Assembly: GCA_048938895.1 (NCBI GenBank)
Contig: JBHLLU010000025.1
Coordinates: forward strand, 25,510-62,414
Direction of reading: 5' to 3'
DNA: 36,905 nucleotides
Source of the DNA: Promethearchaeota archaeon
GTDB taxonomy: Archaea; Asgardarchaeota; Lokiarchaeia; Sigyniarchaeales; SOKP01
Positions 17-26,736 of the stretch are shown here, one piece after another; the stretch's first letter is position 1, and every line of letters starts with the position of its first letter. Under the pieces are notes generated by a model. It had not been told where the DNA came from. It saw only the letters and a list, made by a program, of their open reading frames with translations, and did not search any database. Both the position numbers and the translations under genes were made by a program.

Positions 17-1144
17 TCAAATCTTAAAACTTTCAGCTCTATCTAATTTTCTTTGGCTAAAACTAATAATTTTTGCCAAAATTTTCGATTTTTCTATGGA
101 ACTATTTAATTCATTGGGTTCTATTATATATCCTTTATTCTGAGCGAGATTGTATATTTTTTCTCCTATTTTTGTTCTAATCATCACAGTAGTATAACCA
201 CTTTGAGAACCCAATCCTCCAAAAGAAATATCAGCATAAAAATTTGAAAAGTTTTCACATACTCTACAGGCATGCCTCATAATATCTCTAAGTTCAGAAA
301 ATTCTATCTGCAATGGTGTGTTGCTATTTTTTAGATTGATTATCAGATTTTCTTTAATATTTAACTTTTTAATATCGTCAAAAGAAAATTTAAACCTTTC
401 CTCTATTCTAGCCCTCGCAACGTTATCAAATTTAAAATTTTCATAGCAAAATAATCCTAAAGTATATTTAACAATATGAGCCGGAATAATATTGAGTTCT
501 TGCATTTTTCTGATAGAATGGATCTGGCAGGGAACTCCAACTACCGCAATTTTCATGTAATCTGCATACGCAATTTTTTTTAATTCAGAAATAGTAGAAA
601 CAAAGGTATTATAATTTCCTAATTCCGAAACAGGACCTTTTGAATCATAATAAGTACCTGCAGCCTCAAGAATTTCTTCTCTCGTTTTAGCAAAGAAGGG
701 GATTCTCTGAAATGAATTTATTCTTTTTGAGATAAGTGCCCCATTAATTAAATTATTTTCTAAAAGTGAAATTAATATGGCTGTAACAACCCCCCCATCA
801 GTAGCAACTTCCCTAATTTTTGGATCACTAGCTTGAGCTGTTAGAATTTTGATCCAATTTCCAATAGGTGGTTTGTATTCATATTTAATATTTAACCCTT
901 TGTCCAGTTCAAATGTTTCAGGACAAATTAAATAACAAATTCCACAATGTAAACAATTATCCTTATTAGAGTAATGTGGTGGTCCTTCCTCAGACATCTC
1001 AATTGCTCCTATATCTGCTGCGCTACAAAAACTCACACATCCCCCACATTCTCCACATATATCTTTTTCATGGACCTGTTTAATCAGATCTTCAAAGGAT
1101 TTAGGCATAACATCACTTTTTTTTGTTTGAGGATCTTCAGCCAT
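17..1144 (-). CDS. frhB: Coenzyme F420 hydrogenase/dehydrogenase beta-subunit family protein (FrhB/FdhB/FpoF-like) with N-terminal 2x[4Fe-4S] domain
   Basis: CGECGGCVSFC and CLHCGICYLICP ferredoxin motifs; ATDGGVVTAIL, VVGVPCQ, GLFCYENF, ACRVC..F....ADISFGGLGS..GYTTVMIRT..G are FrhB N/C-domain hallmarks; AGGTGA RBS 6 nt before the ATG. Confidence 0.88.
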   Translation of the reverse strand: MAEDPQTKKSDVMPKSFEDLIKQVHEKDICGECGGCVSFCSAADIGAIEMSEEGPPHYSNKDNCLHCGICYLICPETFELDKGLNIKYEYKPPIGNWIKILTAQASDPKIREVATDGGVVTAILISLLENNLINGALISKRINSFQRIPFFAKTREEILEAAGTYYDSKGPVSELGNYNTFVSTISELKKIAYADYMKIAVVGVPCQIHSIRKMQELNIIPAHIVKYTLGLFCYENFKFDNVARARIEERFKFSFDDIKKLNIKENLIINLKNSNTPLQIEFSELRDIMRHACRVCENFSNFYADISFGGLGSQSGYTTVMIRTKIGEKIYNLAQNKGYIIEPNELNSSIEKSKILAKIISFSQRKLDRAESFKI

Positions 1145-1651
1145 ACAAATTCACCTATTTAATTATTCAAAAGTTAATTAATAATTTTATAGTATTTTTA
1201 ATATTATAATATTTATCATAAAAATCAGATAAAATGACTTAAAACGCATATTTCATTCCAAATAAATTTAGGAATTTGAATTTAATTTCCCATTTTGATA
1301 ATTATTTTTAAAGAATTTTCCCTATTTAAAATTACTTGCTCTTGCTATATTTTGAATTCATATTCATACCCACTACTAAAAAAAAGTCATATATTTTGTA
1401 AATTAGTTCATTTATTGTATTTTTTTTTCAAAATGAATAATGAAAATGTCGAAAAATTTAAAAAAGTTACATAAATCCGAAATTCTAAAAAATCTTTAAA
1501 TATTAAGCTCGATCTTAATTATATTATTGAAAAAAATTATTGTAATCCTTAAAAATATAATAAATACCTTATTAAAAAGATCAATATTTATAAAATAGGA
1601 AAAATAGAATCTAAAACATATTATATTAATAAGCATAAGGTTTGAAAAATT

Positions 1652-2158
1652 ATGCAAATGATAGATTTTGAATTTAGAAATGAGTTAATAGAGGATGATT
1701 TCTCATTAAATTATTGTTATCAATGTGGAACTTGTTCTAGCACCTGTCCTGTAGCACTTATAACAAACGGTGAATATAATCCCCGAAAAATCATTGAACA
1801 ATCGCTTCTAGGGCTTAAAGACCTATTGTTAAAGGATCAAAAGCCTAACGTATGGCTATGCTGTACATGTCAGATGTGTGTGGAAGAATGTCCTCAAAAT
1901 GTTTTTTTAACTGAAATCTTTGAGAGAATAAAAAACAAAATCGTTATTTCGGGAGAACCTTATCCTGAGACATTTAAAACACAAGCACAAAGTGTTTTAG
2001 ACAACGGGTTAGCAATTCCTCTAACACCACCTATAATTCGTAGAAGAGATCAATTGGGACTTCCCAAAGTAGAATCTGCTAATATCAATGAAATAAAAAA
2101 ATTGTTAGATGCTACAGAGTTCGAAAAAAAAATAAACTCATTGGGAGGGAGTAAATGA
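1652..2158 (+). CDS. hdrC: Heterodisulfide reductase subunit C
   Basis: CYQCGTCSSTCP and WLCCTCQMCVEECPQ motifs, YNPRKII, RRDQLGLP; directly upstream of hdrB. Confidence 0.93.
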   Translation: MQMIDFEFRNELIEDDFSLNYCYQCGTCSSTCPVALITNGEYNPRKIIEQSLLGLKDLLLKDQKPNVWLCCTCQMCVEECPQNVFLTEIFERIKNKIVISGEPYPETFKTQAQSVLDNGLAIPLTPPIIRRRDQLGLPKVESANINEIKKLLDATEFEKKINSLGGSK

Positions 2159-2159
2159 A

Positions 2160-3035
2160 ATGTCATATAAGTTCTTTTTGGGTTGTGTAATTCCTGGAAG
2201 ACTACCATTTTTGGAAGCATCAGCTCGTAAAACTTTTGAAAAGATTGGTATGGATGTTGGAGATCAGACTAACTGCTCCTGCTGTCCTGATCCCACCGGT
2301 GTAGCTCAAATGGATCATGAATCATTCTTAGCTATAGGAGCAAGAAATTTATGTCTTTTTGAAGAAAGTAATAATCATATATTGAGTCTTTGCTCTGGAT
2401 GTACAGAATCTCTTAAAACTGTGAAACACACTTTAGATAACGACGATAATATGAAAAAAGAAATTAATTCGAAATTAAAAGTAATTGGAAAATCCTATAA
2501 AGGAAGTATTGATATTAAGCATTTTGCTGAAGTTTTATATGAAAATATTGAAAAACTTAAAAAAAATATTAAAAATCCATTAAAAGATCTAAAAGTTGCC
2601 GGACATCCAGGTTGTCATTATCTACGACCTTCTGAAATAATAAACTGGGATGATCCACTCAATCCCACGACATTAGATAAATTAATTGAAGTAATTGGAG
2701 CAGATGCGGTTGAGTATGATACGAAAAATGATTGTTGCGGAAATCCCCTAGAAAAGTCTGATAAAGAAATCTCTTTGAATATGTTGGAAAGCAAACTTAG
2801 AAGCATGAAGGAAGCGGGAGCAGATTGTATAGTTTGTGTTTGTCCCGCTTGTTATCAACAGTTTGATTTCAATCAGAGAGAAATCAATAAAATTAAAAAT
2901 ACAGATTATAATTTTCCTGTTTTCTATATAACCGAATTAATAGCTTTAGCTTTAGGAATTGATACAAAAGATCTTGGATTAAATTTCCATAGGATAAAAG
3001 TGAATGAAATTTTACAAAAAATAATCAAATCATAG
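2160..3035 (+). CDS. hdrB: Heterodisulfide reductase subunit B
   Basis: Two CCG-type domains: FLGCVIP..CSCCPDP..ARNL..CSGC and HPGCHYLRP..DCCG..CPACYQQFD. Confidence 0.95.
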   Translation: MSYKFFLGCVIPGRLPFLEASARKTFEKIGMDVGDQTNCSCCPDPTGVAQMDHESFLAIGARNLCLFEESNNHILSLCSGCTESLKTVKHTLDNDDNMKKEINSKLKVIGKSYKGSIDIKHFAEVLYENIEKLKKNIKNPLKDLKVAGHPGCHYLRPSEIINWDDPLNPTTLDKLIEVIGADAVEYDTKNDCCGNPLEKSDKEISLNMLESKLRSMKEAGADCIVCVCPACYQQFDFNQREINKIKNTDYNFPVFYITELIALALGIDTKDLGLNFHRIKVNEILQKIIKS

Positions 3036-3048
3036 GAGATGGTATATT

Positions 3049-4344
3049 TTGAGTGAAAAAGAAAAAAAAGTTATGGTTATTGGTGGAGGAATAGCAGGGA
3101 TCCAAGCATCCTTGGATTTAGCAGAGAGAGGTATAAATGTTGAACTAATTGAGAAGAATGCCTGTATTGGTGGAAGGATGGCTCAACTTGATAAAACCTT
3201 TCCTACTAATGACTGTTCTATATGCATTCTAGCTCCTAAGCTCGCTGAGTGTGTTCGACATCCAAATATTTCATTACATACACTTTCGGAAGTTAAAAAT
3301 TTAACTGGGAGACCTGGCAATTTCAATGTGAAAATTTTAAAAAAAGCAAGATACGTGAAAGAAGATAAATGTATAAATTGTGGACAATGTGTAGAAAAAT
3401 GCCCTATGAGGGTAGATGATGAATTTGATATGAAATTAAGGAAACGTAGAGCAATTTATATCGATTATGTTCAAGGAGTTCCTTCAATAATGACAATAGA
3501 TAAAGAAAATTGTCTATTTTTTACGAAAGATGCATGCAGGATTTGTGAAAAAGTATGCGAGAGAGAAGCTATTGATTTTGATCAAAAGGATGAGGAATTT
3601 GAACTAAACGTAGGATCAATCATCGTTGCTACTGGTTATGATATATTTAATCCAATTACTCTTACAACTTTAGGATATGGACGATACCTTAATGTTGTTA
3701 CCGCTTTAGAATTTGAAAGACTAATTTGTGCATCTGGTCCTTTGGGTGGACATTTACAAAGACCATCTGATAAAAATGATCCAAAAAAACTTGCCTTTAT
3801 TAATTGTGTGGGCTCAAGGGATATAAAAAACAATCCCTTTTGTTCATCATGTTGTTGTATGTATACCACCAAAGAAGCAATGATCGCTTATGAACATGAC
3901 AATGAAATAGAAACATCAATATTTTATATTGATCTGCGGGCTGCAGGTAAAGGTTTTCGAGAATATATTCAAAGGGGAGAAAATGAATATAGTATTAAAT
4001 ACATAAAAGGTAAAGTAGCAAGAATAGTAGAAGATGAACAAAGAAATCCTATAATAATATATGAAGATATTGATACTTCACAAGTTAAACAACTTAAATT
4101 TGACCTGGTTATACTCGCTACTACAATGATTCCTAAAAAAGATTCAGGCGAATTAGCTAAGATCTTAGGAATTCAAACAAATGATTTTAGTTTTTTTAAG
4201 GCAAAAAACTACCAGCCACAGAAATCCTCGAAGGAGGGTATATTTCTCTGCGGAACATGTAGAGAACCAATGGATATTCCAAATTCAGTAATTGACGCAA
4301 GTGGAGCAGCTGCTAAAGCCGCTGAAATAGTAATGAGGGGGTGA
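3049..4344 (+). CDS. hdrA: HdrA-like flavoprotein, part 1 (FAD domain with inserted ferredoxin; lacks the N-terminal CHCG domain and C-terminal ferredoxin)
   Basis: VIGGGIAG, GGRMAQLDKTFPTNDCSICILAPK, CINCGQCVEKCP, EFERL, CVGSRD..CSSCCCMYTTKEA; TTG start after AGGAG. Confidence 0.92.
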   Translation: MSEKEKKVMVIGGGIAGIQASLDLAERGINVELIEKNACIGGRMAQLDKTFPTNDCSICILAPKLAECVRHPNISLHTLSEVKNLTGRPGNFNVKILKKARYVKEDKCINCGQCVEKCPMRVDDEFDMKLRKRRAIYIDYVQGVPSIMTIDKENCLFFTKDACRICEKVCEREAIDFDQKDEEFELNVGSIIVATGYDIFNPITLTTLGYGRYLNVVTALEFERLICASGPLGGHLQRPSDKNDPKKLAFINCVGSRDIKNNPFCSSCCCMYTTKEAMIAYEHDNEIETSIFYIDLRAAGKGFREYIQRGENEYSIKYIKGKVARIVEDEQRNPIIIYEDIDTSQVKQLKFDLVILATTMIPKKDSGELAKILGIQTNDFSFFKAKNYQPQKSSKEGIFLCGTCREPMDIPNSVIDASGAAAKAAEIVMRG

Positions 4345-4349
4345 AAAAG

Positions 4350-6017
4350 ATGTCGAACGAAGAGATTAGGATTGGAGTGTTTATTTGTCATTGCGGTACT
4401 AATATAGGAGGCGTTTTGAATATTTCTGAGTTAACAGAATATACCAAAACTTTACCCAACGTCGTATATAGTGACGCTAACTTATATACATGTTCAGAAG
4501 TTGGCTTAAGTGAGATCAGGAAAAATATTGAGGAACATAATTTAAATCGTGTTATAGTAGCCTCATGTTCTCCACGTACTCATGAGCCTTTATTCAGATC
4601 CACGTGCCAAGAAGCAGGCTTAAATCCGTATTTATTTGAAATGGTAAATATTCGGGATCAAGATTCTTGGGTTCATATGAAAGAGCCCGAAAAAGGCACT
4701 GAAAAAGCTAAAGATCTAATTAGAATGGGTGTTCATAAAGCAGCTTTATTGGAATCGTTAGAAAAAACACAGGTCAGTGTGATAGCTTCTGCTATAGTAA
4801 TAGGTGGAGGGATAGCAGGGATGAATGCTGCTTTAACTTTAGCAAACCAAAATTTTAAAGTAAATTTAATTGAAATAGAATCCGAGTTGGGAGGTTTACT
4901 CAGATACCTTTATAAAGTGTATCCTACTAATGAAGATGCTTCAAATATATTGGAGACAAGAGATCTGATTGAAAATCACGAGAATATTGATATATACAAG
5001 TCTACTGTAATAAAAAAAATAGAAGGCTTTGTAGGGAATTATAAAGTATTTCTTCTTCAAAATAAAAAAGAAATAGTAATAGAAGCAGGCGCTATAATTG
5101 TTGCTACTGGCGCAAGAGCATTATCACCAGAAGGATATTATAATTATAACGGTAAAAACATAATTAGTCAATTAGAGTTAGAGGGATTATTAAAAGAGAA
5201 GAAAATCGAAGCTAATAACATTACAATGATTCAATGTGTGGGGTGTAGAAATGAAGAAAGAAAATATTGTTCTAATATATGTTGTATGACAGCACTTAAA
5301 AATGCTATATTGATTAAGGAACAAAATTCAGATGCTAATATAAGTATAATTTTTAGAGATATTCAAACACAAGGTGTTACCTATGAGGAATATTACAGAA
5401 GAGCAAGAGAAATGGGAATACTATTTATTAAATATTTACCAGAAAAGCCACCAACTATTAAGAAAAATCGTATTGAAGTATATAATGAGTTTATGAATCA
5501 AGTAATTGGATTTCCCTATGATCTTATAGTACTATCAATGCCTCTTATTGCAAATGAAGATTCGGAACAACTAGCTAAAATGCTAAAGGTTCCACTAGAG
5601 GAAAATAACTTCTTTTTAGAAGCTCATGTAAAATTAAGACCAGTAGACTTTGCAACCGATGGTGTTTTTGTTTGTGGTTCAGCTCACTGGCCTGCAGATA
5701 TTTCAGAAAGTATATCACAATCAAATGCAGCAGCATCTAGAGCTAGTACAATTCTCTCGAAAGAACTTCTAGAAGTAGAAGGTTCTACTGCTGAAGTTGA
5801 TACAGATGTATGTGTGGGTTGTGAAGCATGTATTAAGATTTGTCCATATAGTGCAATATACAAAGATGAAGATACAGATACCGTAATAGTTAATAAAGTG
5901 GTTTGTAAAGGATGTGGAGTATGTGGTGCCAGTTGTCCTCATAGTGCTATTATCATCCATCACTTTACAAGTGATCAAATAATTGCTGAAATTGCTACCT
6001 ATGGAGGTGGAGAATAG
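4350..6017 (+). CDS. hdrA: HdrA-like flavoprotein, part 2 (CHCG domain, FAD domain without inserted ferredoxin, C-terminal 2x[4Fe-4S])
   Basis: RIGVFICHCGTNI, ASCSPRTHE, NIRDQDSWVH, IGGGIAG, QCVGCR..YCSNICC, EAHVKLRP, CVGCEAC..CP, CKGCGVCGASCP; ATG 4350 follows a GGGGTGA RBS (ORF track starts at GTG 4341). Confidence 0.92.
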   Translation: MSNEEIRIGVFICHCGTNIGGVLNISELTEYTKTLPNVVYSDANLYTCSEVGLSEIRKNIEEHNLNRVIVASCSPRTHEPLFRSTCQEAGLNPYLFEMVNIRDQDSWVHMKEPEKGTEKAKDLIRMGVHKAALLESLEKTQVSVIASAIVIGGGIAGMNAALTLANQNFKVNLIEIESELGGLLRYLYKVYPTNEDASNILETRDLIENHENIDIYKSTVIKKIEGFVGNYKVFLLQNKKEIVIEAGAIIVATGARALSPEGYYNYNGKNIISQLELEGLLKEKKIEANNITMIQCVGCRNEERKYCSNICCMTALKNAILIKEQNSDANISIIFRDIQTQGVTYEEYYRRAREMGILFIKYLPEKPPTIKKNRIEVYNEFMNQVIGFPYDLIVLSMPLIANEDSEQLAKMLKVPLEENNFFLEAHVKLRPVDFATDGVFVCGSAHWPADISESISQSNAAASRASTILSKELLEVEGSTAEVDTDVCVGCEACIKICPYSAIYKDEDTDTVIVNKVVCKGCGVCGASCPHSAIIIHHFTSDQIIAEIATYGGGE

Positions 6018-6788
6018 ATGGCATTCGAACCAAAAATATTAGGATTTTTATGCAATTGGTGCTCTTATGCAGGAGCAGACTTAGCAGGTGTAAGTCGAAT
6101 TCAATATCCAACAAATGTTAGAGTGATTCGTGTTATGTGTTCTGGAAGAGTTGATCCTGTGTTTATAGCTGAAGCATTTATGAACGGTATTGATGGAGTA
6201 CTTGTTCTAGGATGTCATTTAGGAGATTGTCATTATATTAGTGGTAATTATGAAGCAGAATTAAAAATGAAGATGTTAAGTAAGGCATTATCGATGATTA
6301 ATTTCTCTGGGCGATTACAACTTGATTGGGTTTCTGCTTCTGAAGGTGGTAGATTTGCTCAAATAGTGAGTGATTTCACTGAACATATCCGTAAATTGGG
6401 ACCTTCTCCTGTTAAGAATAAAAAAATGAAAGAAGAAGTAATGAATAATCTTACTGCAATTAAATCTACTTTATGTGATACAAGATTAAGAGCTTTAGTT
6501 GCGAGACAAAGGGAATTGACAACAGAAGGGAATGTATATGGGGAACTAATTCCTAATGAGGAATTCGAGGATATTCTTGATAATGCAATTGAAAATGAAA
6601 CAATTCGCCATAAAATCTTAGAAAAAATCAAAAAAGAGGGAAAATCTGTTCCTGATATTGCAAAGGAAATTAATGTAGAACCTCATAAAGTTTTACAACA
6701 TATTGTAACTCTTCGAGCTCGTGGCCTGGTTGATGTTGATCAAATAAATGAAGAGATTCCCACTTTTATTTCTATTAAAGAGGTTTAA
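6018..6788 (+). CDS. mvhD: MvhD/FlpD [2Fe-2S] subunit with ~125-aa C-terminal extension ending in a winged-helix-like domain
   Basis: FLCNWCSYAGADLAG, RVMCSGRVDP, GCHLGDCHY..GN, WVSASEG; extension contains SVPDIAKEINVEPHKVLQHIVTLRARGLV. Confidence 0.92.
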   Translation: MAFEPKILGFLCNWCSYAGADLAGVSRIQYPTNVRVIRVMCSGRVDPVFIAEAFMNGIDGVLVLGCHLGDCHYISGNYEAELKMKMLSKALSMINFSGRLQLDWVSASEGGRFAQIVSDFTEHIRKLGPSPVKNKKMKEEVMNNLTAIKSTLCDTRLRALVARQRELTTEGNVYGELIPNEEFEDILDNAIENETIRHKILEKIKKEGKSVPDIAKEINVEPHKVLQHIVTLRARGLVDVDQINEEIPTFISIKEV

Positions 6789-6790
6789 AA

Positions 6791-9700
6791 ATGGAAAAGG
6801 TTGGTTCAGTTTTAGTTGTAGGAGGAGGAATAGCAGGTATTCAAGCTTCAATGGATTTAGCAGATTCAGGGTTTAAAGTGTATTTAGCTGAATCGTCAAT
6901 GAGTATAGGAGGAGTTATGTCTCAATTAGATAAAACCTTCCCTACTAATGATTGCTCTATTTGTATCCTTGCGCCTAAATTAGTGGCTGCAGGACGTCAT
7001 GAAAACATTACACTTTTAATAAATACAAATTTAGAAAAAATTGATGGAACTCCTGGTAATTTTACTGTAGAATTAAAACAAAGATCCCTACTTTTAGATC
7101 AAGAAAAGTGCACAGGTTGTGGCGTTTGTGCTCAAGAATGTCCAGTAGAAGCAATTGATTTTTTTAATGAAGGATTATCCAATAGGGCAGCTATATCAGT
7201 TAAGTTTCCCCAAGCAGTTCCATTAGTTTTTTCAATTGATCAAAATTTATGTATTGGTTGTGGTTTTTGTAAAGGGGTTTGTAAAGCTAAAGCAATAGAC
7301 TACACACTTGAGGATAAATTTACTACTCTAAATGTTGGGGCAATTATTTTAGCACTTGGGTTTGATGAGTATGATCCTAGTCTTACCCAACAATATGGAT
7401 ATAGTAAATATTTGAATGTGGTCACTAGTATTGAGTTTGAACGTATTTTAAGTGCAAGTGGTCCGCATTCGGGACTTATACTTAGACCCTCTGATGGAAT
7501 AATTCCAAAAAAAATAGCCTTCCTCCAATGTGTTGGTTCAAGAGATAAGAAGTTTGGCGCCGAATATTGTTCATCTATATGTTGTATGTATACTGCTAAA
7601 GAGGCAGTAATTGCTAAAGAACATATGGAAATAATTCACCCTACAATTTTTTCTATGGATGTTAGAGCCGTTGGAAAAGATTTCGATAAATATATTGAAC
7701 GTGCTCAAAAGGAGTATGGAATAAGATATATTAGGAGTAGAATTTCCTCTATAAAAGAAATACCTGACTCGAAGGATCTAATACTTCATTTCGAAAATGA
7801 AGAGGGAAAAGTTGTAAGTGAGGTTTTTAATTTAGTCGTTCTCGCAGTAGGTGCTTTACCAAATCATAGTACAAAAGAATTAGCAAAAAAATTAAATATT
7901 GAATTGAATGGTTATGATTTCTGCAAAACCAAACCGTTTTCTCCTGTAGAAACATCCAGAGAAGGAATATATGTATGTGGTATGATTTCAGAACCTAAAG
8001 ATATTCCAGAAACTGTTGTAGAGGCGAGTGCAGCAGCGGGCGCTGTAAATATACTTTTATCTGAAGTAAGAAACACGTTAGTTACTGAAAAGGAATTACC
8101 CAAAGAACTTGATATTAGTGGTGAACCCCCCCGGATAGGAGTTTTCATATGTCATTGTGGAATTAATATTGGGGGTGTGGTAGATGTCCCTGAAGTTGTT
8201 GAATATGCAAGTAAACTACCTGATGTAATCCATGCAGAAAGAAATTTATACACTTGTTCCGCCGATACTCAAAGTAATATTAAGGAACAAATTAATGAAC
8301 ATAAATTAAACAGAGTAATAGTAGCTTCATGTACACCTAGAACTCATGAATCTTTGTTTCAAGCTACAATTCGGGAAGCAGGGTTAAATAAATATTTATT
8401 TGATTTAGCCAATATTCGAGATCAATGTTCCTGGGTACATATGCATGAACCAGAACAAGCGACAGAGAAAGCAAAAGATCTAGTTAGAATGGCTATCGCT
8501 AAAGCTCGGCAATTAGTCCCCCTCCAAGAACAACAGGTAGAAGTAATTCATAAGGGATTAATAATTGGGGGGGGTGTTTCAGGTATGACTGCCGCGTTGA
8601 ATCTTGCAAATCAAGGATTTGAAGTATTTCTCGTTGAAAAAAGTGGAAAATTAGGAGGTTTTTCAAACAATATTTATCAAACCCTAGAAAATCATGATGT
8701 GCAGGAATTCCTTAAAGATTTAATAAATAAGGTTAACACGCATAAATTAATTAATGTCTTTCTTAATGCTCGAATTAACTCGATAGGAGGATATGTTTGT
8801 AACTTTACTGCCAAGATTACATTTGGTGAAGATAAACAAAAGAAAGAATTTCAGCATGGTATTATTATAGTTGCTACTGGAGCTCTTGAATATCAACCAA
8901 AAAATGGTGAATTTCTTTTTGCTAAAGATGATAGGGTTATCTCGCAGTCAGAATTAGAGAAAATTCTGTTTACTGAAGAAGAAAAAGTTAACGACTTAAA
9001 ATCGATCGTTATGATCCAGTGTGTAGGTTCTAGAAACGATGAACATCCTTATTGTAGCAGAATGTGTTGCAGTGAAGCTATTAAAAATGCTTTAAAAGCA
9101 AAGGAGATTAATCCAGATCTTAATGTTACTATATTATATAGAGATATCAGAACTTACGGGTTTAAAGAAAAGTATTATAATTTAGCAAGAGAAAAAGGAG
9201 TAATTTTCATAAGATTTCAAGAGGACAAACCTCCAGAAATCAAATTAGAAGATGGAACTTTACAGATCTTCATTCAAAGACCCGATCTCGGAGATATTAT
9301 GGTAAATGCTGATTTAGTTGCACTCAGCGCAGGTATAGTTGCCGATGGTCCAGCAAACGAAGATCTTGCAAAAATGCTGAAAGTCCCTGTAAATGATGAT
9401 AAATTCTTTTTAGAAGCTCATGTAAAACTTCGACCATCAGATTTTGCTACTGACGGAATTTTCTTGTGTGGTACTGCTCGAGGAACAGCAACAATTAGAG
9501 AAAGTATTGCACAAGCAATGTCAGCAGCCTCCAGGGCTACCACAATTTTATCTAAAGATATTTTAGTAACTGAAGGAGTTATTTCTCAAGTAGATCCTGC
9601 TTTATGTATAGGCTGTAATAGATGTGCTGAGGTTTGTAATTATGGCGCAGTTGGGGTAAGATATGAAGAAGGATTAATGGTTTCTGAAGTAAATCCTCTA

Positions 9701-10255
9701 CTTTGTAAAGGGTGTGGAGATTGTGCTGCTGAGTGCCCGGCCGAAGCGATAACCATGAGCCATTTTGGAAGAATCCAAATTGAACCAATGATAGCTGAAG
9801 CTGCTAAAACCACAACCACGGATGGACAACCAAGAATTGTTGCTTTTCTCTGTAATTGGTGTAGCTATGCGGGGGCGGATCTAGCTGGTGTCAGCCGATA
9901 TCAATACCCTCCAAATGTAAGAACAATAAGAGTTATGTGTTCTGGGGGCATCCCTAAGAGTTTTATATTACAAGCATTTTTAGAGGGTGCTGACGGTGTT
10001 TTTATAGGTGGATGTCATCTAGGTGATTGCCACTACATAGCAGGAAATCAGGACACTTTAAGAAGAACTGATGAAATTGAAAAGATTATAGGATCTCTTG
10101 GAATAAATCCAGAAAGGTTCCTGAGAAAATGGGTTTCTGCGAGTGAAGGGAAAATTTTCGCTGAAACCATTTCAGAATTTACCAATAAATTGAAAAAACT
10201 TGGACCTATTGAAAATGATTATAAAAAAAAAAAAGAAATTCTAATAACAAAATAA
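6791..10255 (+). CDS. hdrA: Large HdrA-like protein with two FAD domains fused to a C-terminal MvhD domain
   Basis: Two GGGxxG FAD motifs, LDKTFPTNDCSICILAPK, internal RIGVFICHCGINI, four ferredoxin-type motifs, C-terminal FLCNWCSYAGADLAG..GCHLGDCHY. Confidence 0.93.
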   Translation: MEKVGSVLVVGGGIAGIQASMDLADSGFKVYLAESSMSIGGVMSQLDKTFPTNDCSICILAPKLVAAGRHENITLLINTNLEKIDGTPGNFTVELKQRSLLLDQEKCTGCGVCAQECPVEAIDFFNEGLSNRAAISVKFPQAVPLVFSIDQNLCIGCGFCKGVCKAKAIDYTLEDKFTTLNVGAIILALGFDEYDPSLTQQYGYSKYLNVVTSIEFERILSASGPHSGLILRPSDGIIPKKIAFLQCVGSRDKKFGAEYCSSICCMYTAKEAVIAKEHMEIIHPTIFSMDVRAVGKDFDKYIERAQKEYGIRYIRSRISSIKEIPDSKDLILHFENEEGKVVSEVFNLVVLAVGALPNHSTKELAKKLNIELNGYDFCKTKPFSPVETSREGIYVCGMISEPKDIPETVVEASAAAGAVNILLSEVRNTLVTEKELPKELDISGEPPRIGVFICHCGINIGGVVDVPEVVEYASKLPDVIHAERNLYTCSADTQSNIKEQINEHKLNRVIVASCTPRTHESLFQATIREAGLNKYLFDLANIRDQCSWVHMHEPEQATEKAKDLVRMAIAKARQLVPLQEQQVEVIHKGLIIGGGVSGMTAALNLANQGFEVFLVEKSGKLGGFSNNIYQTLENHDVQEFLKDLINKVNTHKLINVFLNARINSIGGYVCNFTAKITFGEDKQKKEFQHGIIIVATGALEYQPKNGEFLFAKDDRVISQSELEKILFTEEEKVNDLKSIVMIQCVGSRNDEHPYCSRMCCSEAIKNALKAKEINPDLNVTILYRDIRTYGFKEKYYNLAREKGVIFIRFQEDKPPEIKLEDGTLQIFIQRPDLGDIMVNADLVALSAGIVADGPANEDLAKMLKVPVNDDKFFLEAHVKLRPSDFATDGIFLCGTARGTATIRESIAQAMSAASRATTILSKDILVTEGVISQVDPALCIGCNRCAEVCNYGAVGVRYEEGLMVSEVNPLLCKGCGDCAAECPAEAITMSHFGRIQIEPMIAEAAKTTTTDGQPRIVAFLCNWCSYAGADLAGVSRYQYPPNVRTIRVMCSGGIPKSFILQAFLEGADGVFIGGCHLGDCHYIAGNQDTLRRTDEIEKIIGSLGINPERFLRKWVSASEGKIFAETISEFTNKLKKLGPIENDYKKKKEILITK

Positions 10256-10291
10256 AAAAATAACACTTTCATAAAATTAGGAGTTTATAGG

Positions 10292-10990
10292 ATGATAATA
10301 ACTAAACAAAAGGATATTGAAGAAATATATGATATGGTAAAGCCTTATTCAAAAATCTTGGTTGCAGGGTGCGATGGTTGCTGTCAACCTCCGCGTTCTA
10401 TAAATGAAGCTAAACTTTTAGCACAAATGCTTGAATTGAAGGCAAGAAGTGAGGGAAAGGAATTAAAATGGAAAGCTATAACTGTTTTAAGACAGTGTGA
10501 TGACAGAATTGCGGCTACAACAATAAGACCTTTTATTGAAGAATATGATGCTATTGTTTCATTAGCGTGTGGTCTTGGGGTAGGAATGTTAAATAGAATA
10601 TTTCCTGCAATTCTCACTTTTCCTGCGCAAAATAGTATGTTTGGGGGCGCAGAAAATAATGGTGAGAATTATTTTGTTGAGTATTGTGAAACTTGTGGTG
10701 AATGTTTATTAGGAGTCACAGGAGGTATATGCCCTATGGCAGGATGTGCTAAAAACCTAAGTAACGGTCCATGCGGAGGGCAAGTCGAAGGGAAGTGTGA
10801 AGTAGGAGGATATATTCACGATTGTGCGTGGGTAAAAATCTGGGAGCGTTTAAAAAAGTTTAACAGGCTCGATCTTTTCACAGTTTATAGACCCCCTCGG
10901 AATTACCGATTATGGTCAAGTCCAAGATTTATACATATATATGAATCAATTTCTAATGAAGAAGAACAAAAAAAGGAGGAAAAGGTCTAA
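10292..10990 (+). CDS. metV: Methylene-tetrahydrofolate reductase Fe-S/Zn subunit MetV
   Basis: MIITKQK start, GCDGC, RQCD, LACGLG, and C-terminal CETCGEC.L..TGGICP...CAKNL.NGPCGG...GKCEV..DCAW (MTHFR_C); immediately before metF. Confidence 0.9.
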   Translation: MIITKQKDIEEIYDMVKPYSKILVAGCDGCCQPPRSINEAKLLAQMLELKARSEGKELKWKAITVLRQCDDRIAATTIRPFIEEYDAIVSLACGLGVGMLNRIFPAILTFPAQNSMFGGAENNGENYFVEYCETCGECLLGVTGGICPMAGCAKNLSNGPCGGQVEGKCEVGGYIHDCAWVKIWERLKKFNRLDLFTVYRPPRNYRLWSSPRFIHIYESISNEEEQKKEEKV

Positions 10991-10991
10991 A

Positions 10992-11924
10992 ATGACAAAC
11001 AGACCAGCTTTCAGTAATTTAGTAAAAACGATTAGAGAGGGTAAATTTGTTTTCACCGGTGAATTAGAACCAGAAAAGGATTTTGACTTAACGCATGTAC
11101 TTAAATCAGCAGAAGAAATGAAAAAAACTGGAAAAATAATTGCAGCGAATGTAACTGATGGTCCTCAAGGAGATGCTTATACTTGTTCCATGGTTCCTTG
11201 TTATTTAGTTCAAGAAAAGGTTGGATTAGAAGCGATTTGGCAAATGACTGTAAGAGATAGAAATAGAATTGCTTTATTTGGCGATATATTAGGTGGTTCA
11301 ATTCTTGGCCTTAAAAATTTACTAGCTTTGACCGGAGATCATTCTGCACTTGGTGATCATCAACAGGCTAGACCTGTATATGATCTAGATTCCACTCAAT
11401 TAATTGCATTAGTTTCAAAAATGGTTGATGAAGGAACAGATTTAGAAGGGAACGAAATTAAAGGAGGAAAACCTCAAATAAATGTGGGCTGTGCTGCAAA
11501 CCCAAATTCAAATCCAAGAGAACCCGAAATATTAAAAGTTGGCAGAAAGGTAGAAGTAGGTGCAGATTTCATTCAAACCCAAACATCATTTGATATAGAA
11601 GATGCTAAGGAATTTTTAAAAGAATTAGAAAGGTATAATACTCCTGTATTACTCGGATTATTCCCGATAAAAAATTATGGAATAGCGTGGTATTTTAATG
11701 AATATATTCCAGGAGTTTCAGTTCCTCAAGATTTTCTTAATGCTTTAAAAAAAGCTAAGAAGATTAAAGATAAACAGGAGAAATATACGGCGATTGACAA
11801 CATAAATCTTGAATTTTTTGAACCATTTATTAAAGAAATAAAAAAAACCACGAAAGCAGCGGGAATTCACTGCATGGCAGTACATTATGAGAGATTATTC
11901 GAGCCACTACTTAAAGATTTTTGA
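10992..11924 (+). CDS. metF: Methylene-tetrahydrofolate reductase catalytic subunit MetF
   Basis: FVFTGELEP, ANVTD, QMTVRDRNRIAL, NLLALTGDH, VYDLDS, GADFIQTQ, GIHCMA; ATG 10992 directly after the metV stop (ORF-track start 10941 overlaps metV). Confidence 0.93.
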   Translation: MTNRPAFSNLVKTIREGKFVFTGELEPEKDFDLTHVLKSAEEMKKTGKIIAANVTDGPQGDAYTCSMVPCYLVQEKVGLEAIWQMTVRDRNRIALFGDILGGSILGLKNLLALTGDHSALGDHQQARPVYDLDSTQLIALVSKMVDEGTDLEGNEIKGGKPQINVGCAANPNSNPREPEILKVGRKVEVGADFIQTQTSFDIEDAKEFLKELERYNTPVLLGLFPIKNYGIAWYFNEYIPGVSVPQDFLNALKKAKKIKDKQEKYTAIDNINLEFFEPFIKEIKKTTKAAGIHCMAVHYERLFEPLLKDF

Positions 11925-12012: not shown

Positions 12013-12462
12013 ATGAAAAATCTTGATGAAAAAGATAAAAAGATTATTGAAATGTTGTTTGAAAACTCAAGAAGACCCTATCATGAAATTGCGGGTGAAG
12101 TAGGGTTGTCTGAATCAACTGTTAGGAAACGTGTAATTAAATTACAAGAAGGGGGGATAATAGAAAAATTTACTATAAAAATTTGCCGAGAAGATGAAAA
12201 ATGTATATATGCCTTCCTTACACTTATTCCAAAAAATGAATCAGAAATTAAAGAACTACTAAGAGAAACGGTAATTCTTCCTCAATGTGAGGAAGTATAT
12301 AAACTTGACGGCAGATGTGGAATTTTAATTAAAGTTAGTGTACCCGATACTAATGAGTTAGATGCTTTGTTAGAAATGTTTCGTTCTCGAACTGATATCG
12401 AAAGCGTAGAGAGAATTTGCATTGTCTTAAAGCCAATTAAAATCATTCCAAGTACTTTATAA
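12013..12462 (+). CDS. Lrp/AsnC family transcriptional regulator
   Basis: LDEKDKKIIEML..NSRRPYHEIAGEVGLSESTVRKRVIKLQEGGIIEKFT HTH plus AsnC-type effector domain; alternative start 11998. Confidence 0.92.
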   Translation: MKNLDEKDKKIIEMLFENSRRPYHEIAGEVGLSESTVRKRVIKLQEGGIIEKFTIKICREDEKCIYAFLTLIPKNESEIKELLRETVILPQCEEVYKLDGRCGILIKVSVPDTNELDALLEMFRSRTDIESVERICIVLKPIKIIPSTL

Positions 12463-12482
12463 CCATAATATTCAATGAAATA

Positions 12483-12511
12483 AGAGAAGAAAAAAATTCT
12501 TCTCTCTTTTT
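12483..12511 (+). terminator. Hairpin plus T-tract downstream of the Lrp gene, possible terminator
   Basis: AGAGAAGAA (12483-12491) and TTCTTCTCT (12497-12505) form a perfect 9-bp inverted repeat followed by CTTTTT. Confidence 0.45.
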
Positions 12512-12849
12512 AGAATTGAATGAAATTAGTGATCAAAAACATTCTTATTTTTAACAAGATCTATTTAAACTACTCGTTAAATTATTCTTTCTCTTGTAGA
12601 ATGAGATATAATATTATTAAATTAGTAATTATCGTTTCTGTTAAATCAAGAATGTATAGAAGATCGTTTGGATAAAGGTCGTAAACTAGTAACACTATGC
12701 TTAATATAATATTGATAATAAATACAGAGCTTAAAAGAATCTGAGCTTTTTTCATTTCATTCTATCGTGGCTAAAATTGCAAGTATTACTAATAATCTAC
12801 AAATTTATTTTAAAACATGTATAAAATCTGTAAATTATAAAGAATGAAA

Positions 12850-13176
12850 TTAATATGGATTTGTCCACTTCTCCAAAAATTGTAATAATGTATCCGAATC
12901 TCTTGATATTTCAATACTCTCTATAATCCCAACATTTCTTAATTTAAGTTCGGAATTGAAATAACATAATAACGCATGCAAGGGTTTCCCATGAAGGTGA
13001 ATATGTGGAAAATAAACATTTTTTAAAGAATTTAATCTTTTTACGACTTCTAATTCTATACCCATTTTTATCTCTTTGTTACATTTAGGACATCTAATAT
13101 TTTTTTCTACAGACTTTTTAATATGTTCATCATCCTTAATTCTACCATATACAACAACCAGGTTTTTCACATCCAA
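12850..13176 (-). CDS. Small putative Zn-binding protein (CxxC ... HxH ... H-x4-Y-x7-R module)
   Basis: IRCPKC..HIHLHGKPLHALLCYFNSELKLR; the module recurs at the N-terminus of 25831..26736; start uncertain. Confidence 0.75.
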   Translation of the reverse strand: MDVKNLVVVYGRIKDDEHIKKSVEKNIRCPKCNKEIKMGIELEVVKRLNSLKNVYFPHIHLHGKPLHALLCYFNSELKLRNVGIIESIEISRDSDTLLQFLEKWTNPY

Positions 13177-20341: not shown

Positions 20342-21232
20342 ATGAAATCTAAAAATTTGGGTTACCTAATACCAAGAGTAGAGTCAAAATCTGAGTCTTT
20401 TGCTCATAAAATAATCAAACAATTGATCTATACCAATATTCTTGAACACAATTTAGATATTATTGATTCGTGTTTAGAAAAATATTTTGAGACAAGACGA
20501 GCTGACGTTTATTTCAAGTTTAAATCAGGAGAAGAGGTAGTAGTTGAAATCCAAAACTCCCCTATTTCCTCAAAGGAGATTACTGCCCGTACAAAGGATT
20601 ATAACAATAGAGGAATTTATGTCCTATGGATTTTTTATGGGAATGGGAAGAGTATTGGTTCACCTAAGAGCCCTCATCATCTTAAAAATTTGAAGATAAG
20701 TCCTGCAGAAATGCGATTGCATCAGCTTTATAGGGGGAGAGCTTATTATGTAAATATTACTTATACGCAAGAGAAATTTAGACCCACTCAACCCTACGCG
20801 TTACATTTCTCCTTTTCGGATAAATATTCCCCCAATATATTTAGAAAAGGATTTGAAACATTTTTTATTCGTAATATAAACTATATTCGTATCCCAAATT
20901 GGAATCTATTTTGCACAACATATGGGAATTATAAAATCGCTAGATTTTATGATCGCAATGCCAAATATACGTTAATGGAATTGATAAGTGGACATGCAAA
21001 AAGAAATAATATTATTCGTGATAAATCATATTCTAAAACAAAAAATACAAAAAAATACTTAAAACTGATCTATAAAATATTTGGAGATGAATATGGGAGA
21101 AATATCATCATCGATGCCTTACTTCGTTTAACAGATAATAGAGGATTTATGTTAAATGCAAAATGTCTGAAAAAATATAAAAAAAGCCTTTCTCGTAGAG
21201 CAAAGACTAAATTAACTAAAATTTCCTTTTAA
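20342..21232 (+). CDS. CoiA-like PD-(D/E)xK nuclease-domain protein
   Basis: SES..HK..K, E..F..RRADV, VVEIQNSPIS..EI..RT.DY...GIYVLWI match the CoiA nuclease domain; basic C-terminal region. Confidence 0.8.
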   Translation: MKSKNLGYLIPRVESKSESFAHKIIKQLIYTNILEHNLDIIDSCLEKYFETRRADVYFKFKSGEEVVVEIQNSPISSKEITARTKDYNNRGIYVLWIFYGNGKSIGSPKSPHHLKNLKISPAEMRLHQLYRGRAYYVNITYTQEKFRPTQPYALHFSFSDKYSPNIFRKGFETFFIRNINYIRIPNWNLFCTTYGNYKIARFYDRNAKYTLMELISGHAKRNNIIRDKSYSKTKNTKKYLKLIYKIFGDEYGRNIIIDALLRLTDNRGFMLNAKCLKKYKKSLSRRAKTKLTKISF

Positions 21233-21335: not shown

Positions 21336-21953
21336 TTAAATTGCTACGGATACTAAGTTTTGTTTGAAATGCTTTTTTAATATTAATTGTAAAATCTCTT
21401 CAAAACATTCTAGAACACCTTCCCCCTTAATAGCACTTGTATATCTTGTGTCGACATTTTTATATTTAGGGTAATTAATTTCTTTTAAAAACACCCTAGG
21501 ATTGATTTTTATTTCTGGTTCAAGATCTTGTTTGTTGAACACTAACAGAATTGGAATTAGTTCAAAAAATTCATTAAAATATGACATTAACTCCTTCCAA
21601 GAGATTAAATTTCTTGAATATACTTCTCTATGAGAATCTAGTACAAAAATAATCCCATCTACTGCCCGTAGTGTAGTTAACCTTGTTATTAAATAGAAAT
21701 CCTGACCTGTAGTTGTATAAATATGAATTTTTATTCGCCAATCTTGATTTTGAAAGGTAACAGTACCATAATCAAAAAATAATGTCCTATTAACCGTACT
21801 TTCAACACTGCATAACTCCTCTTCCTTTCCAAAGAGTGAGAATAAAGCTTTAATAGAAGTAGTCTTACCGGAAAGAGCAGGCCCAAAATATACGATTTTA
21901 ATACTTAATGTTTTATCGACATGATCTATAATCATATGTTTTAGTTTAAACAT
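21336..21953 (-). CDS. Small Ras-superfamily GTPase, MglA-like
   Basis: KIVYFGPALSGKTT (G1), RTLFFDY (MglA switch I with Arg), TTTGQ (MglA-type G3 lacking Asp), DGIIFVLDS, NKQD (G4), SAI (G5). Confidence 0.92.
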   Translation of the reverse strand: MFKLKHMIIDHVDKTLSIKIVYFGPALSGKTTSIKALFSLFGKEEELCSVESTVNRTLFFDYGTVTFQNQDWRIKIHIYTTTGQDFYLITRLTTLRAVDGIIFVLDSHREVYSRNLISWKELMSYFNEFFELIPILLVFNKQDLEPEIKINPRVFLKEINYPKYKNVDTRYTSAIKGEGVLECFEEILQLILKKHFKQNLVSVAI

Positions 21954-22024
21954 ATATTTTTAAAAACCAATTATTTCCTACTTTTTCTGTATATAAATTT
22001 GCTCAAATAAAGATTCCTAAAGGA

Positions 22025-23128
22025 TTAGATCTCTTTCCATAAATCATCAATTTTTTCACCTAATTTATCCCATTCCCATACTATGTTCAACCCAAAATAT
22101 GCTCTAATTAAGTCTGTTAAAAAGTAGAGATACTGCTTTCTGATTTTCTTAATTTTTAGCGAATCTTCTATATGCCTAACAAGAATTCTTGGTGATACTG
22201 GTTTTCTATAATCTCCTCTCTCATAATAATTGAACAAATGCATAGTTAAAATATATATTCCTTCAAGTTTCTCTTTTAAATCTAAAACACAAGAACCATT
22301 ATCTTGGTTATTGTAAAAATTTCTTATTAAATCAGTTTCATATTTTAAATGATGAGAATTTATTAATTTTCTCGTCTCATTTATTACATCCTTTTCAGGC
22401 ATTATAACAAAACCTTCATATAACTGTCTATTTTTCTTATATTGTGACTTAGATTTAATGATTATTTCAGATGTAAAGGATTTTTGAAATATATAATCAA
22501 TGAAATTACTCAAATCAGGAATCAAATGAGTAATTTCCTTCTTCATTAGAATTAATATCTTCTTTCGAAATAAACTAGAATGTACAATATAGATTAATAC
22601 TTCGGGAGGAATATTCAATTTTAATTTAGCGATTGTTTCTTCTTGTGGTTTTCCTGTAAATGGTAAATTTAAAAGGTTAAAATATTTTTCATAGATTTCC
22701 AAGAGTGTGTTTTTAAATTTACTATAATTTAAATCTTCTAATTCCTTTCGAGTTTTACGTTTTTCATACAAAATTTTAGGTAACTCCTTTAGACCTTTCA
22801 ATTCATGAGCAAATTCTTGAATTATTTGAGATTTGAGTTTTAACGACTTGAAGTTTTCATTTAATTGTTCACCTACGATAAATGTAATCATAAATTCTTC
22901 AAATCCACTTCTGGCAAACTTAGAACATATATAAAACCGATAATTTAATGTCTGAAAATCTTCAAACGCAATTGGAAATGGTTTTTCCCCGCCCCCATAA
23001 CCCAATAACATGTCCAGTAAAAACCCATCAAAAGGATTATTGTCATGTTTACTAAAAAATAATTTGGGCCCCTCTACTTGGTCAAAATAAAAGATGTATA
23101 ATCTTCTAGAATCAATATTTTCTTTCAT
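22025..23128 (-). CDS. Putative longin/uDENN plus core-DENN-like protein
   Basis: N-terminal YFDQVEGP and FYI.SKFARSG.E.FMITFI resemble uDENN/folliculin-type longin motifs; C-terminal ~200 aa homologous to 25831..26736. Confidence 0.6.
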   Translation of the reverse strand: MKENIDSRRLYIFYFDQVEGPKLFFSKHDNNPFDGFLLDMLLGYGGGEKPFPIAFEDFQTLNYRFYICSKFARSGFEEFMITFIVGEQLNENFKSLKLKSQIIQEFAHELKGLKELPKILYEKRKTRKELEDLNYSKFKNTLLEIYEKYFNLLNLPFTGKPQEETIAKLKLNIPPEVLIYIVHSSLFRKKILILMKKEITHLIPDLSNFIDYIFQKSFTSEIIIKSKSQYKKNRQLYEGFVIMPEKDVINETRKLINSHHLKYETDLIRNFYNNQDNGSCVLDLKEKLEGIYILTMHLFNYYERGDYRKPVSPRILVRHIEDSLKIKKIRKQYLYFLTDLIRAYFGLNIVWEWDKLGEKIDDLWKEI

Positions 23129-25830: not shown

Positions 25831-26736
25831 TTAGAAATGTATTTTTTTTTTAAGATTTACATCAAAATAATTCAAAACAATTTCATACAGAAAGTTCAAG
25901 TAAGTTTTATCAATCTTGATTTTGAACTCTTTGGACAAGTATTCTGAAACAACATTATTGATATATTTTTCTTGGCTAACCACCTCATCAAGAATGGATT
26001 CAATGATAGAACTATCAGGTCTTATTTTTTTTTTTTGTGGGCTATATGCATTTGCAAATTTAGCAATGGCTTTTGCATAAGTGAAAGCCTTAGTTAATTC
26101 ATTTATTAATGTTAGATAGCTATATCCTAAATCAAATTCACTAAGAAATTGATTTACGATCTGTCTTTCTACCTTACATTTTTTTTCCTCCAAAATACTA
26201 TTAGGATCATTTATAATTTTATTTCCATCGAGAACAATCCTATTTTTGAATAACTTCTTTTGTTTTTTATATTCTTCTTCAGAAATAATGTCTAATTCGA
26301 AATCAAAAGAATCCTTAGTAATATAATTGAAGAAATTTCTAATATGATCATTTAAAAAAGATTGGTAAGAGATTAAAACTAGCTTTTCCTTGCAGAAAAT
26401 AGCTCTTAATAAATTGGTTAAAAGGGTAAGAGTAATATTTAACTTAATTAAATCTATATTTAAAATAGCTTTATCTGGTAAAACAAGATCCTTTATTTTC
26501 TGCTCTTCAGGTAAATCAGGTATTTCAATTAGAAAATCTGCTATAAAATAATCCCTTACTGTAAAATTTTTATCAATATAGACAATAAAAGAGTGTTGAC
26601 AAATAAAATTTGATACAATATTTACAGCTAATAACCCACGTGAAGTTGATTGTACTAATTCTTCGGAAAGTTCAACAAATCCCAATTCTCTACATGCAGG
26701 ACATCTAATTTCAACTTTAGGTAAAAAAATCACCAT
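25831..26736 (-). CDS. Zn-binding module fused to a core-DENN-like domain
   Basis: IRCPAC..CQHSFIVYIDKNFTVR N-terminus (cf. 12850..13176); C-terminus aligns with that of 22025..23128. Confidence 0.65.
   Translation of the reverse strand: MVIFLPKVEIRCPACRELGFVELSEELVQSTSRGLLAVNIVSNFICQHSFIVYIDKNFTVRDYFIADFLIEIPDLPEEQKIKDLVLPDKAILNIDLIKLNITLTLLTNLLRAIFCKEKLVLISYQSFLNDHIRNFFNYITKDSFDFELDIISEEEYKKQKKLFKNRIVLDGNKIINDPNSILEEKKCKVERQIVNQFLSEFDLGYSYLTLINELTKAFTYAKAIAKFANAYSPQKKKIRPDSSIIESILDEVVSQEKYINNVVSEYLSKEFKIKIDKTYLNFLYEIVLNYFDVNLKKKIHF

Follow-up and report, generated by a model that had tools for sequence, protein, structure and literature searches.

Folliculin (FLCN, with FNIP2), SMCR8/C9orf72 and NPRL2/NPRL3 share an architecture in which a longin domain is followed by a DENN domain. 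According to the passages of PMC12290439 (Traffic, 2025) considered here, a GP motif stands at the start of longin strand beta2, beside an arginine finger, in FLCN, NPRL2, SMCR8 and C9orf72 and also in Asgard longins, whereas it is absent from FNIP2, NPRL3 and the DENND guanine nucleotide exchange factors (GEFs). Together with the arginine finger, the motif is described there as specific to longins of the GTPase-activating protein (GAP) type. The same passages propose ArfR or Rag/Gtr GTPases as possible clients of the Asgard GP-motif longins and leave the matter open. As for gene organization, the parts of Liu et al. (2020 preprint, 10.1101/2020.10.19.343400) considered here report an Asgard operon, 'LAMTOR1-like Roadblock, Rab-like small GTPase, DENN', with conservation in the majority of Asgard archaea, as well as FLCN-like longin+DENN proteins in Heimdallarchaea and expanded families of DENN paralogues in Loki. 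MglA-type GTPases have already been reported in Asgard archaea (passages of PMC10933270 and 10.1101/2024.02.28.582541). Here, we analyzed a stretch of 36,905 nucleotides (nt) from a Promethearchaeota archaeon (contig JBHLLU010000025.1, positions 25,510 to 62,414), hereafter the window, in which the gene of a 367-amino-acid (aa) protein, X367, precedes that of an MglA-like small GTPase. Our best explanation, to which we assign a probability of roughly 55%, is that X367 is an Asgard folliculin/SMCR8-type longin-DENN protein that regulates the adjacent GTPase. Within this explanation, a GAP activity is favoured.

The two genes and their parts are located as follows.

22025 to 23128, minus strand: X367, the 367-aa longin-DENN protein (open reading frame (ORF), homologous clusters, AlphaFold2 (AF2) model, Foldseek and VIA matches)
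22658 to 23128, minus strand: longin (uDENN-like) domain of X367, residues 1 to about 157
23066 to 23071, minus strand: GP motif G20-P21 of X367 at the start of longin strand beta2 (conservation; position as in section 2.4 of PMC12290439)
22910 to 22912, minus strand: Arg73 (R73) of X367 in the beta4-beta5 loop, a candidate arginine finger (conservation)
22028 to 22651, minus strand: DENN-like domain (cDENN and dDENN) of X367, residues 160-367
21954 to 22024, minus strand: intergenic spacer between X367 and the GTPase, with a TATA-like TTTATATA at 21990-21997 (sequence)
21336 to 21953, minus strand: MglA-like small GTPase, 205 aa (Pfam Ras/Arf, PDB matches to MglA, RTLFFD and TxxGQ)

An earlier examination of the letters without database searches (the sequence-only reading) had placed the 367-aa gene 71 nt upstream of the GTPase gene on the same strand, and the ORF list confirmed this arrangement, with the 205-aa GTPase ORF downstream. 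The motifs quoted there were all present: FDQVEGP at residues 15-21 of X367, FYICSKFARSGFEEFMITFI at residues 65-84, LIYIVHSSLFRKKILIL at residues 178-194, and RTLFFD and TTTGQ in the GTPase. Since the GTPase orthologues start at the second Met, which is the seventh codon (MIIDHVDK), the true start is probably at 21935, so that the protein would have 199 aa and the spacer 89 nt. The TATA-like TTTATATA in the spacer is only a hint of a separate GTPase promoter, because the genome is AT-rich (27% G+C here). The statement that no roadblock/MglB gene is adjacent also held: none was found beside the pair, and 0 of the 25 genomic Robl_LC7 hits lie on the window's contig (C152).

Homologues of X367 were detected in 46 protein clusters at E<=0.001 (identity 56-96%, coverage mostly full-length). 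Thus, X367 is a real gene and not a chance ORF. The named clusters were all 'hypothetical protein' entries from metagenome-assembled genomes (MAGs) of Promethearchaeota or Thorarchaeota, which places the window in an Asgard archaeon of the Loki lineage. In a profile search of 1.84 billion representatives, 227 relatives were collected at E<=1e-3. These relatives divide X367 into an N-domain (residues 1 to about 155) and a C-domain (residues about 165-365), each of which is also found separately. The C-domain occurs mostly in proteins of about 280 aa, which form most of the 227 relatives and constitute a large Asgard family; single cases carry it with helix-turn-helix (HTH) or HATPase_c domains. 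Of the 28 representatives scanned, 9 combine the N-domain with a GTPase domain of the Ras/Arf type, and such a fusion is encoded once in the window genome (contig C53, 5534-6571, minus strand; a GP-motif longin with a divergent Ras/Arf-like GTPase domain, about 345 aa). These fusions are evidence of the Rosetta-stone type for a partnership between longin and GTPase. One N-domain relative (P0095) is fused to TIR instead of a GTPase. Proteins of about 350 aa that match the N-domain are common to most of the family's genomes, and those inspected were longin-GTPase fusions.

Full-length orthologues of X367 were found in 10 of 400 genomes of the phylum, all of them in the window's genus (54 genomes, the window's own included). 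A relative of 321-324 aa occurs in a second genus; it consists of a longin domain, a zinc ribbon (CPYC...CEH) and the last ~70 residues of the C-domain, and is 31-38% identical to X367 in the longin part. This architecture suggests modular remodelling of the X367 family. In one MAG, X367 was present on separate contigs as two complete copies and a truncated one, 69-76% identical to that of the window; they may be real paralogues or reflect a mixed bin.

The sequence-only reading had called a longin/DENN fold from the letters, and structure prediction agreed with this call. The AF2 model of full-length X367 (predicted local distance difference test score, pLDDT, 77.3) shows a beta-beta-alpha-beta-beta-beta-alpha longin, followed by an alpha/beta and then a helical domain. 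In this model, the N-terminal part has the longin (uDENN) fold, and the C-terminal part has the succession of an alpha/beta cDENN and a helical dDENN. At the place that had been flagged as the helix-strand start of core DENN (LIYIVHSS.. / KKILIL), the model has a helix at 175-186 and then a strand at 190-195. When the whole model was compared with the PDB by Foldseek, 19 hits were obtained at E<=1e-3, the best being 8dhb_J (E 8.6e-6). Among the hits shown, every one at this threshold was a chain of a longin/DENN complex or a DENND GEF domain, and the matched groups were FLCN-FNIP2, Commander/DENND10, GATOR1/SEA (NPRL2/3), C9orf72-SMCR8 and DENND1A/B. The atlas language-model features pointed in the same direction. 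The nearest named cluster was archaeal, mostly Heimdall, with the Pfam Folliculin family in 23% of its members (score 0.93), and the next clusters were eukaryotic C9orf72, Folliculin and SMCR8.

Since the longin domain dominated the Foldseek list of the whole protein, residues 160-367 were modelled alone from an alignment of 66 rows (pLDDT 91.9). In a VIA comparison of this model with 48,161 chains, the six best matches were all DENN domains, aligned over 161-183 of 208 residues (DENND1A, score 9.5; C9orf72, 7.7; FLCN, 7.6; DENND10, 7.3; the FLCN C-terminal domain, 7.3; SMCR8, 6.8). Several other results weigh against the assignment. Foldseek of the C-domain alone was non-significant (best E 0.055, DENND1B), with AAA+ ATPases interleaved among the matches, and the cDENN part of the X367 model has only three beta-strands. 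X367 matched 0 families in Pfam (E<=1) and NCBIfam. Profile searches of the PDB with the full-length and longin alignments (E<=10) retrieved no longin, DENN, FLCN or NPRL chain; the hits were confined to USP8, a phage baseplate protein and DUSP10, and we regarded them as chance matches. Pfam searches with 19 longin domains up to E 10 likewise gave no longin, DENN, uDENN, Folliculin, Folliculin_C, C9orf72-like or NPR2 match, and the only DENN match at the sequence level was a weak one in a single relative (P0048, E 0.059).

These results would suit a C-terminal half that is not DENN, but a generic small alpha/beta domain with a winged helix, such as a module that binds nucleic acid or nucleotides. 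VIA ranks 7 to 50 were winged-helix matches of about 60 residues (residues 130-196 of the domain model), and some C-domain relatives carry an N-terminal HTH (P0097, P0104). We nevertheless regard such a module as very improbable: the VIA score drops to these partial matches only after the six DENN domains, longin+DENN proteins are matched by the full-length model along its whole length, and the atlas features name Folliculin, C9orf72 and SMCR8. Thus, the longin and DENN folds of X367 are well supported by the models, whereas membership in the known longin/DENN families is not supported by sequence profiles.

The GP motif is found in X367 at the position described for GAP-type longins. In the model, G20-P21 lies exactly at the start of beta2 (strand E20-25). 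Both GP and R73 were invariant in 24 X367 orthologues. In 20 diverse relatives, longin-GTPase fusions included, G was invariant and P and R73 were conserved in at least 90%; GP and R73 were also conserved in the 19-sequence longin alignment, in which R73 was invariant. In the model, R73 belongs to the beta4-beta5 loop and, going by topology, shares an edge of the sheet with the GP motif. On grounds of sheet topology only, R73 may be the equivalent of the arginine fingers of FLCN, NPRL2 and SMCR8.

Compared with the described longin-DENN proteins, X367 shares with FLCN (with FNIP2), SMCR8/C9orf72 and NPRL2/NPRL3, which are its best structural matches, the order of longin and then DENN, and with the FLCN/SMCR8/NPRL2 group the GP motif at beta1-beta2 and a conserved longin arginine. 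In contrast to them, X367 is much smaller (367 aa), has a reduced cDENN and shows no detectable similarity in sequence profiles. X367 has no evident second partner subunit that is catalytically inert, and the GTPase beside it is of the MglA-like type instead of Rag or Arf.

The resemblance to DENND proteins raises the question of a different activity. X367 could be a DENN-type GEF, in which the cDENN would open the nucleotide pocket of the GTPase as in DENND1-Rab35 and the longin domain would be only a platform or dimerisation module. The sequence identity between X367 and DENND1A/B is only 11%, and the cDENN of X367 is reduced to three predicted strands. Furthermore, in the passages of PMC12290439 considered here, the GP motif and the conserved arginine are absent from the longins of DENND GEFs and present in GAP-type longins. 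A GEF of this type is therefore improbable in our estimation.

As for the GTPase, its assignment to the MglA type by the sequence-only reading was upheld. In a phmmer search of the PDB, the four best matches were MglA entries (E 1e-24 to 7e-23), with Thermus MglA (3t12) at E 1.1e-24, and the next match was Rab4B, the best Rab, at E 2.2e-6. Pfam assigned the protein to Ras/Arf. The RTLFFD and TTTGQ of the window GTPase align with ERTLFFDF and TVPGQ of Thermus MglA, and R50, T76, G77 and Q78 were invariant in 13 sequences. MglA is thus the closest Ras-like relative of this protein, which has the switch-I arginine and has TxxGQ in place of DxxGQ. We take the switch-I arginine (RTLFFD) and TxxGQ to be the hallmarks of MglA. 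The text of PMC10933270, in the passages considered here, supports this view.

In the bacterial MglA-MglB systems (Thermus, Myxococcus), as in the window, a GTPase with the MglA hallmarks is encoded alongside a regulator of the roadblock/longin superfamily. MglB supplies no catalytic residue. This is also cited in the passages of PMC10933270 considered here. In contrast, the putative regulator in the window joins a longin to a DENN domain, has a candidate arginine finger and is not a small roadblock homodimer, and no MglB or roadblock gene is adjacent. A specific form of the favoured GAP activity is that X367 is an arginine-finger GAP, working through GP and R73 on an MglA-type GTPase, so that the mechanism would predate eukaryotes and would first have served MglA-like GTPases. 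We hold this form to be tentative and rather unlikely as stated. The GTPase retains its own switch-I arginine and catalytic glutamine, and an external arginine finger may therefore be unnecessary.

Searches of the window genome gave 17 hits to small GTPases (E<=1e-5) and 25 to roadblock. The GTPase has two more close MglA-like paralogues there (51% and 68% identity). The 68%-identity paralogue (contig C72, 5583-7869) lies in a different conserved locus, for which six loci were compared. Recurring neighbours there are a 647-aa tetratricopeptide repeat (TPR) protein and a 180-aa Ras-family GTPase (4/6 loci each), a protein of 125-127 aa (3/6) and an opposite-strand protein of about 404 aa (6/6); the last two have no known family.

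The linkage of X367 and the GTPase was surveyed in 11 related loci from species-representative genomes. Nine of them could be judged, and the other two (L005 and L011) end too early downstream. In all nine, a GTPase gene was found within about 2 kb of the X367 orthologue. It was directly downstream and co-oriented in five loci, separated by an inserted opposite-strand amidohydrolase gene in three, and convergent in one (56% identity). In the second genus, the 321-324-aa relative was convergent to a same-clade GTPase, 47-49% identical to that of the window, in 6/6 loci. In a maximum-likelihood tree, the X367-linked and second-genus GTPases formed one clade (99/96), nested among the operon-type GTPases of the same family; the root of this tree is tentative, being set by two paralogues on long branches.

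The wider distribution of the genes is less favourable to a partnership. Of the 54 genomes in the genus, 50 carry GTPases 54-85% identical to that of the window (most >60%), with two copies being frequent, whereas full-length X367 is present in just 10 of the 54; the link is not obligate. In 12 inspected loci of same-clade GTPases from 8 genomes (7 without X367), no X367-like neighbour was observed. The orientation of X367 and the GTPase varies between loci, and the pair is therefore no strict operon. The flanking genes, namely nitronate monooxygenase (NMO), a metallo-beta-lactamase (MBL)-fold gene, the CoiA-like gene and a 237-aa gene, are conserved across the loci as well, and some of the adjacency may therefore simply have been inherited. 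In another genus, the 378-aa C-domain relatives (L048, L049) have no GTPase neighbour. A 154-aa protein encoded upstream of same-clade GTPases in X367-less genomes was considered as a longin counterpart and rejected, as hhalign against the longin profile gave no match; Pfam shows only a zinc ribbon in it.

From these observations it could be argued that the two genes are no partners but stand together through common descent, that their adjacency is a single insertion inherited within one subclade, and that X367 acts on another GTPase (Rag-, Arf-, Ras-like or longin-fused) or as a scaffold. The unequal occurrence of the two genes, the 12 loci without X367, the co-conserved flanks, the variable orientation with a gene inserted at three loci, and the many candidate partners in the genome, as counted above, would all fit. 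On the other hand, the adjacency outlasts inversion, insertion and divergence to 56% identity, and recurs in the second genus with a much-diverged relative. In addition, the GTPases beside X367 relatives are one clade, and the linkage of DENN-like genes with MglA-like GTPases extends across the phylum (42/42 loci, described below). We consider mere neighbourhood unlikely, but a possibility to be taken seriously. X367 and the GTPase may be a cognate pair, as the sequence-only reading proposed, and synteny supports this. A GTPase was always near full-length X367 in the survey; the conservation is narrow, the genes are not always co-oriented, and GTPases of the same clade usually stand without X367.

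The 51%-identical paralogue of the GTPase ends a tight operon (contig C91, 6277-8793), in which overlapping genes encode, in this order, a roadblock protein of 336 aa (Pfam Robl_LC7), a 298-aa protein and the GTPase. The 298-aa protein is DENN-like by the atlas features (C9orf72-like, Folliculin_C/SMCR8_C, SPA/DENND11), and 1 of 16 members of its family hits Folliculin_C (E 5e-4). A homologue of it is encoded in 229 of the phylum's 400 genomes surveyed. The roadblock, 298-aa and GTPase genes had the same order and orientation in 42/42 loci, 12 of which are from other genera and families. Judging by gene content, the DENN operon that Liu et al. describe is probably the same one, as far as the passages considered here go. 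Weighing against our explanation, hhalign of the C-domain family against the 298-aa family was not significant (probability 1.7%). The X367 family gave no significant match to the operon 298-aa protein or its family either, and a close relationship between the X367 and 298-aa families is not shown by profile comparison.

Both the operon of Liu et al. and the window pair link a DENN-fold gene to a small GTPase. They differ in that the window locus comprises two genes, without a roadblock gene, in place of three, and in that its DENN protein has a longin domain of its own and is restricted to 10/54 genomes of one genus. Because an operon with a paralogous GTPase was found in the same genome and in 42/42 loci, matching the operon in the passages of Liu et al., the window pair is best read as a lineage-specific fused offshoot of a Roadblock-DENN-GTPase module, made up of a duplicated operon-type GTPase and a longin-DENN single chain.

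What was observed here is the folds and motifs, the linkage and paralogy of the genes, and a GTPase of the MglA-like type; going beyond this, a course of action can be proposed for X367 as a regulator of its neighbour. The longin joined to DENN would take the place of a separate roadblock gene. X367 may dimerise through its longin and/or DENN domains, and its longin platform would bind the MglA-like GTPase, by analogy with the way MglB, FLCN-FNIP2 and C9orf72-SMCR8 bind theirs. X367 would then control the nucleotide state of the GTPase. The favoured activity would be GTPase activation through the pocket of GP and R73, and the alternative would be nucleotide exchange through the DENN core. A complex prediction of two X367 chains with the GTPase gave a score of 0.00; controls were not folded, and this result speaks neither for nor against binding.

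The sequence-only reading had also presented the locus as a candidate for an undescribed system, which is not supported. Asgard DENN proteins, FLCN-like longin+DENN proteins and the Roadblock-GTPase-DENN operon are already contained in the passages of Liu et al. considered here, and Asgard longins with GP motif and arginine finger (passages of PMC12290439) as well as MglA-like GTPases are already known. Compared with the Asgard GP-motif 'FLCN/SMCR8-type' longins of PMC12290439 and the Loki Roadblock-Longin protein (PDB 8yqg), the neighbourhood of X367 points to an MglA-like GTPase, and the relatives found here have the longin fused to DENN, GTPase or TIR. In the text passages covered by our literature search, no longin-DENN protein linked to an MglA-type GTPase was found; figures and supplements may hold one.

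Two other genes of the window are related to the pair by sequence or position.

25831 to 26736, minus strand: 301-aa paralogue of the X367 C-domain with an N-terminal CxxC...CxH zinc ribbon and without a longin domain (BLASTP)
20342 to 21232, plus strand: CoiA-like nuclease-domain protein (Pfam CoiA_nuc, E 4e-13), convergent to the GTPase

The 301-aa paralogue is of the ~280-aa type (zinc ribbon and C-domain) and matches residues 185-349 of X367 in BLASTP (E 9e-10); a Pfam scan of it gave no match. It was considered as a conserved DENN-DENN partner of X367 and dropped, as it is not at the corresponding place in another locus (L001). The immediate neighbours of the pair are a divergent NMO gene and the convergent CoiA-like nuclease gene. 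In other genomes, a gene of about 633 aa, the size of an aldehyde-ferredoxin oxidoreductase, separates the GTPase from the CoiA-like gene.

Farther away in the window, positions 17-11924 hold FrhB-like, ferredoxin, CCG (HdrB-like), pyridine-nucleotide-disulphide oxidoreductase/HdrA-like and FlpD/MvhD-like genes, and then methylene-tetrahydrofolate reductase (MTHFR) genes. This cluster includes a 1154-aa fusion and resembles an electron-bifurcating methylene-tetrahydrofolate reductase module. Immediately outside the left edge of the window is a P-loop GTPase-like gene of 226 aa (12361-13041 of the segment C152:12000-25600). Upstream on the same contig, also outside the window, co-oriented genes (5312-8287 of that segment) encode proteins of 182 aa and 581 aa and, between them, a small GTPase of 217 aa, 38% identical to that of the window.

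Asgard DENN proteins and folliculin-like longins have been catalogued already; the window locus and the phylum-wide operon nominate MglA-like GTPases as their clients. What is new here is a fused, lineage-specific version of the DENN-GTPase module and not a new kind of system. If X367 is indeed an arginine-finger GAP, the catalytic mechanism of FLCN, GATOR1 and C9orf72 would be older than eukaryotes. In that case, the two arrangements that these genomes contain, one split (separate Roadblock and DENN genes) and one fused (longin-DENN), would record the assembly of the tripartite uDENN-cDENN-dDENN regulator.

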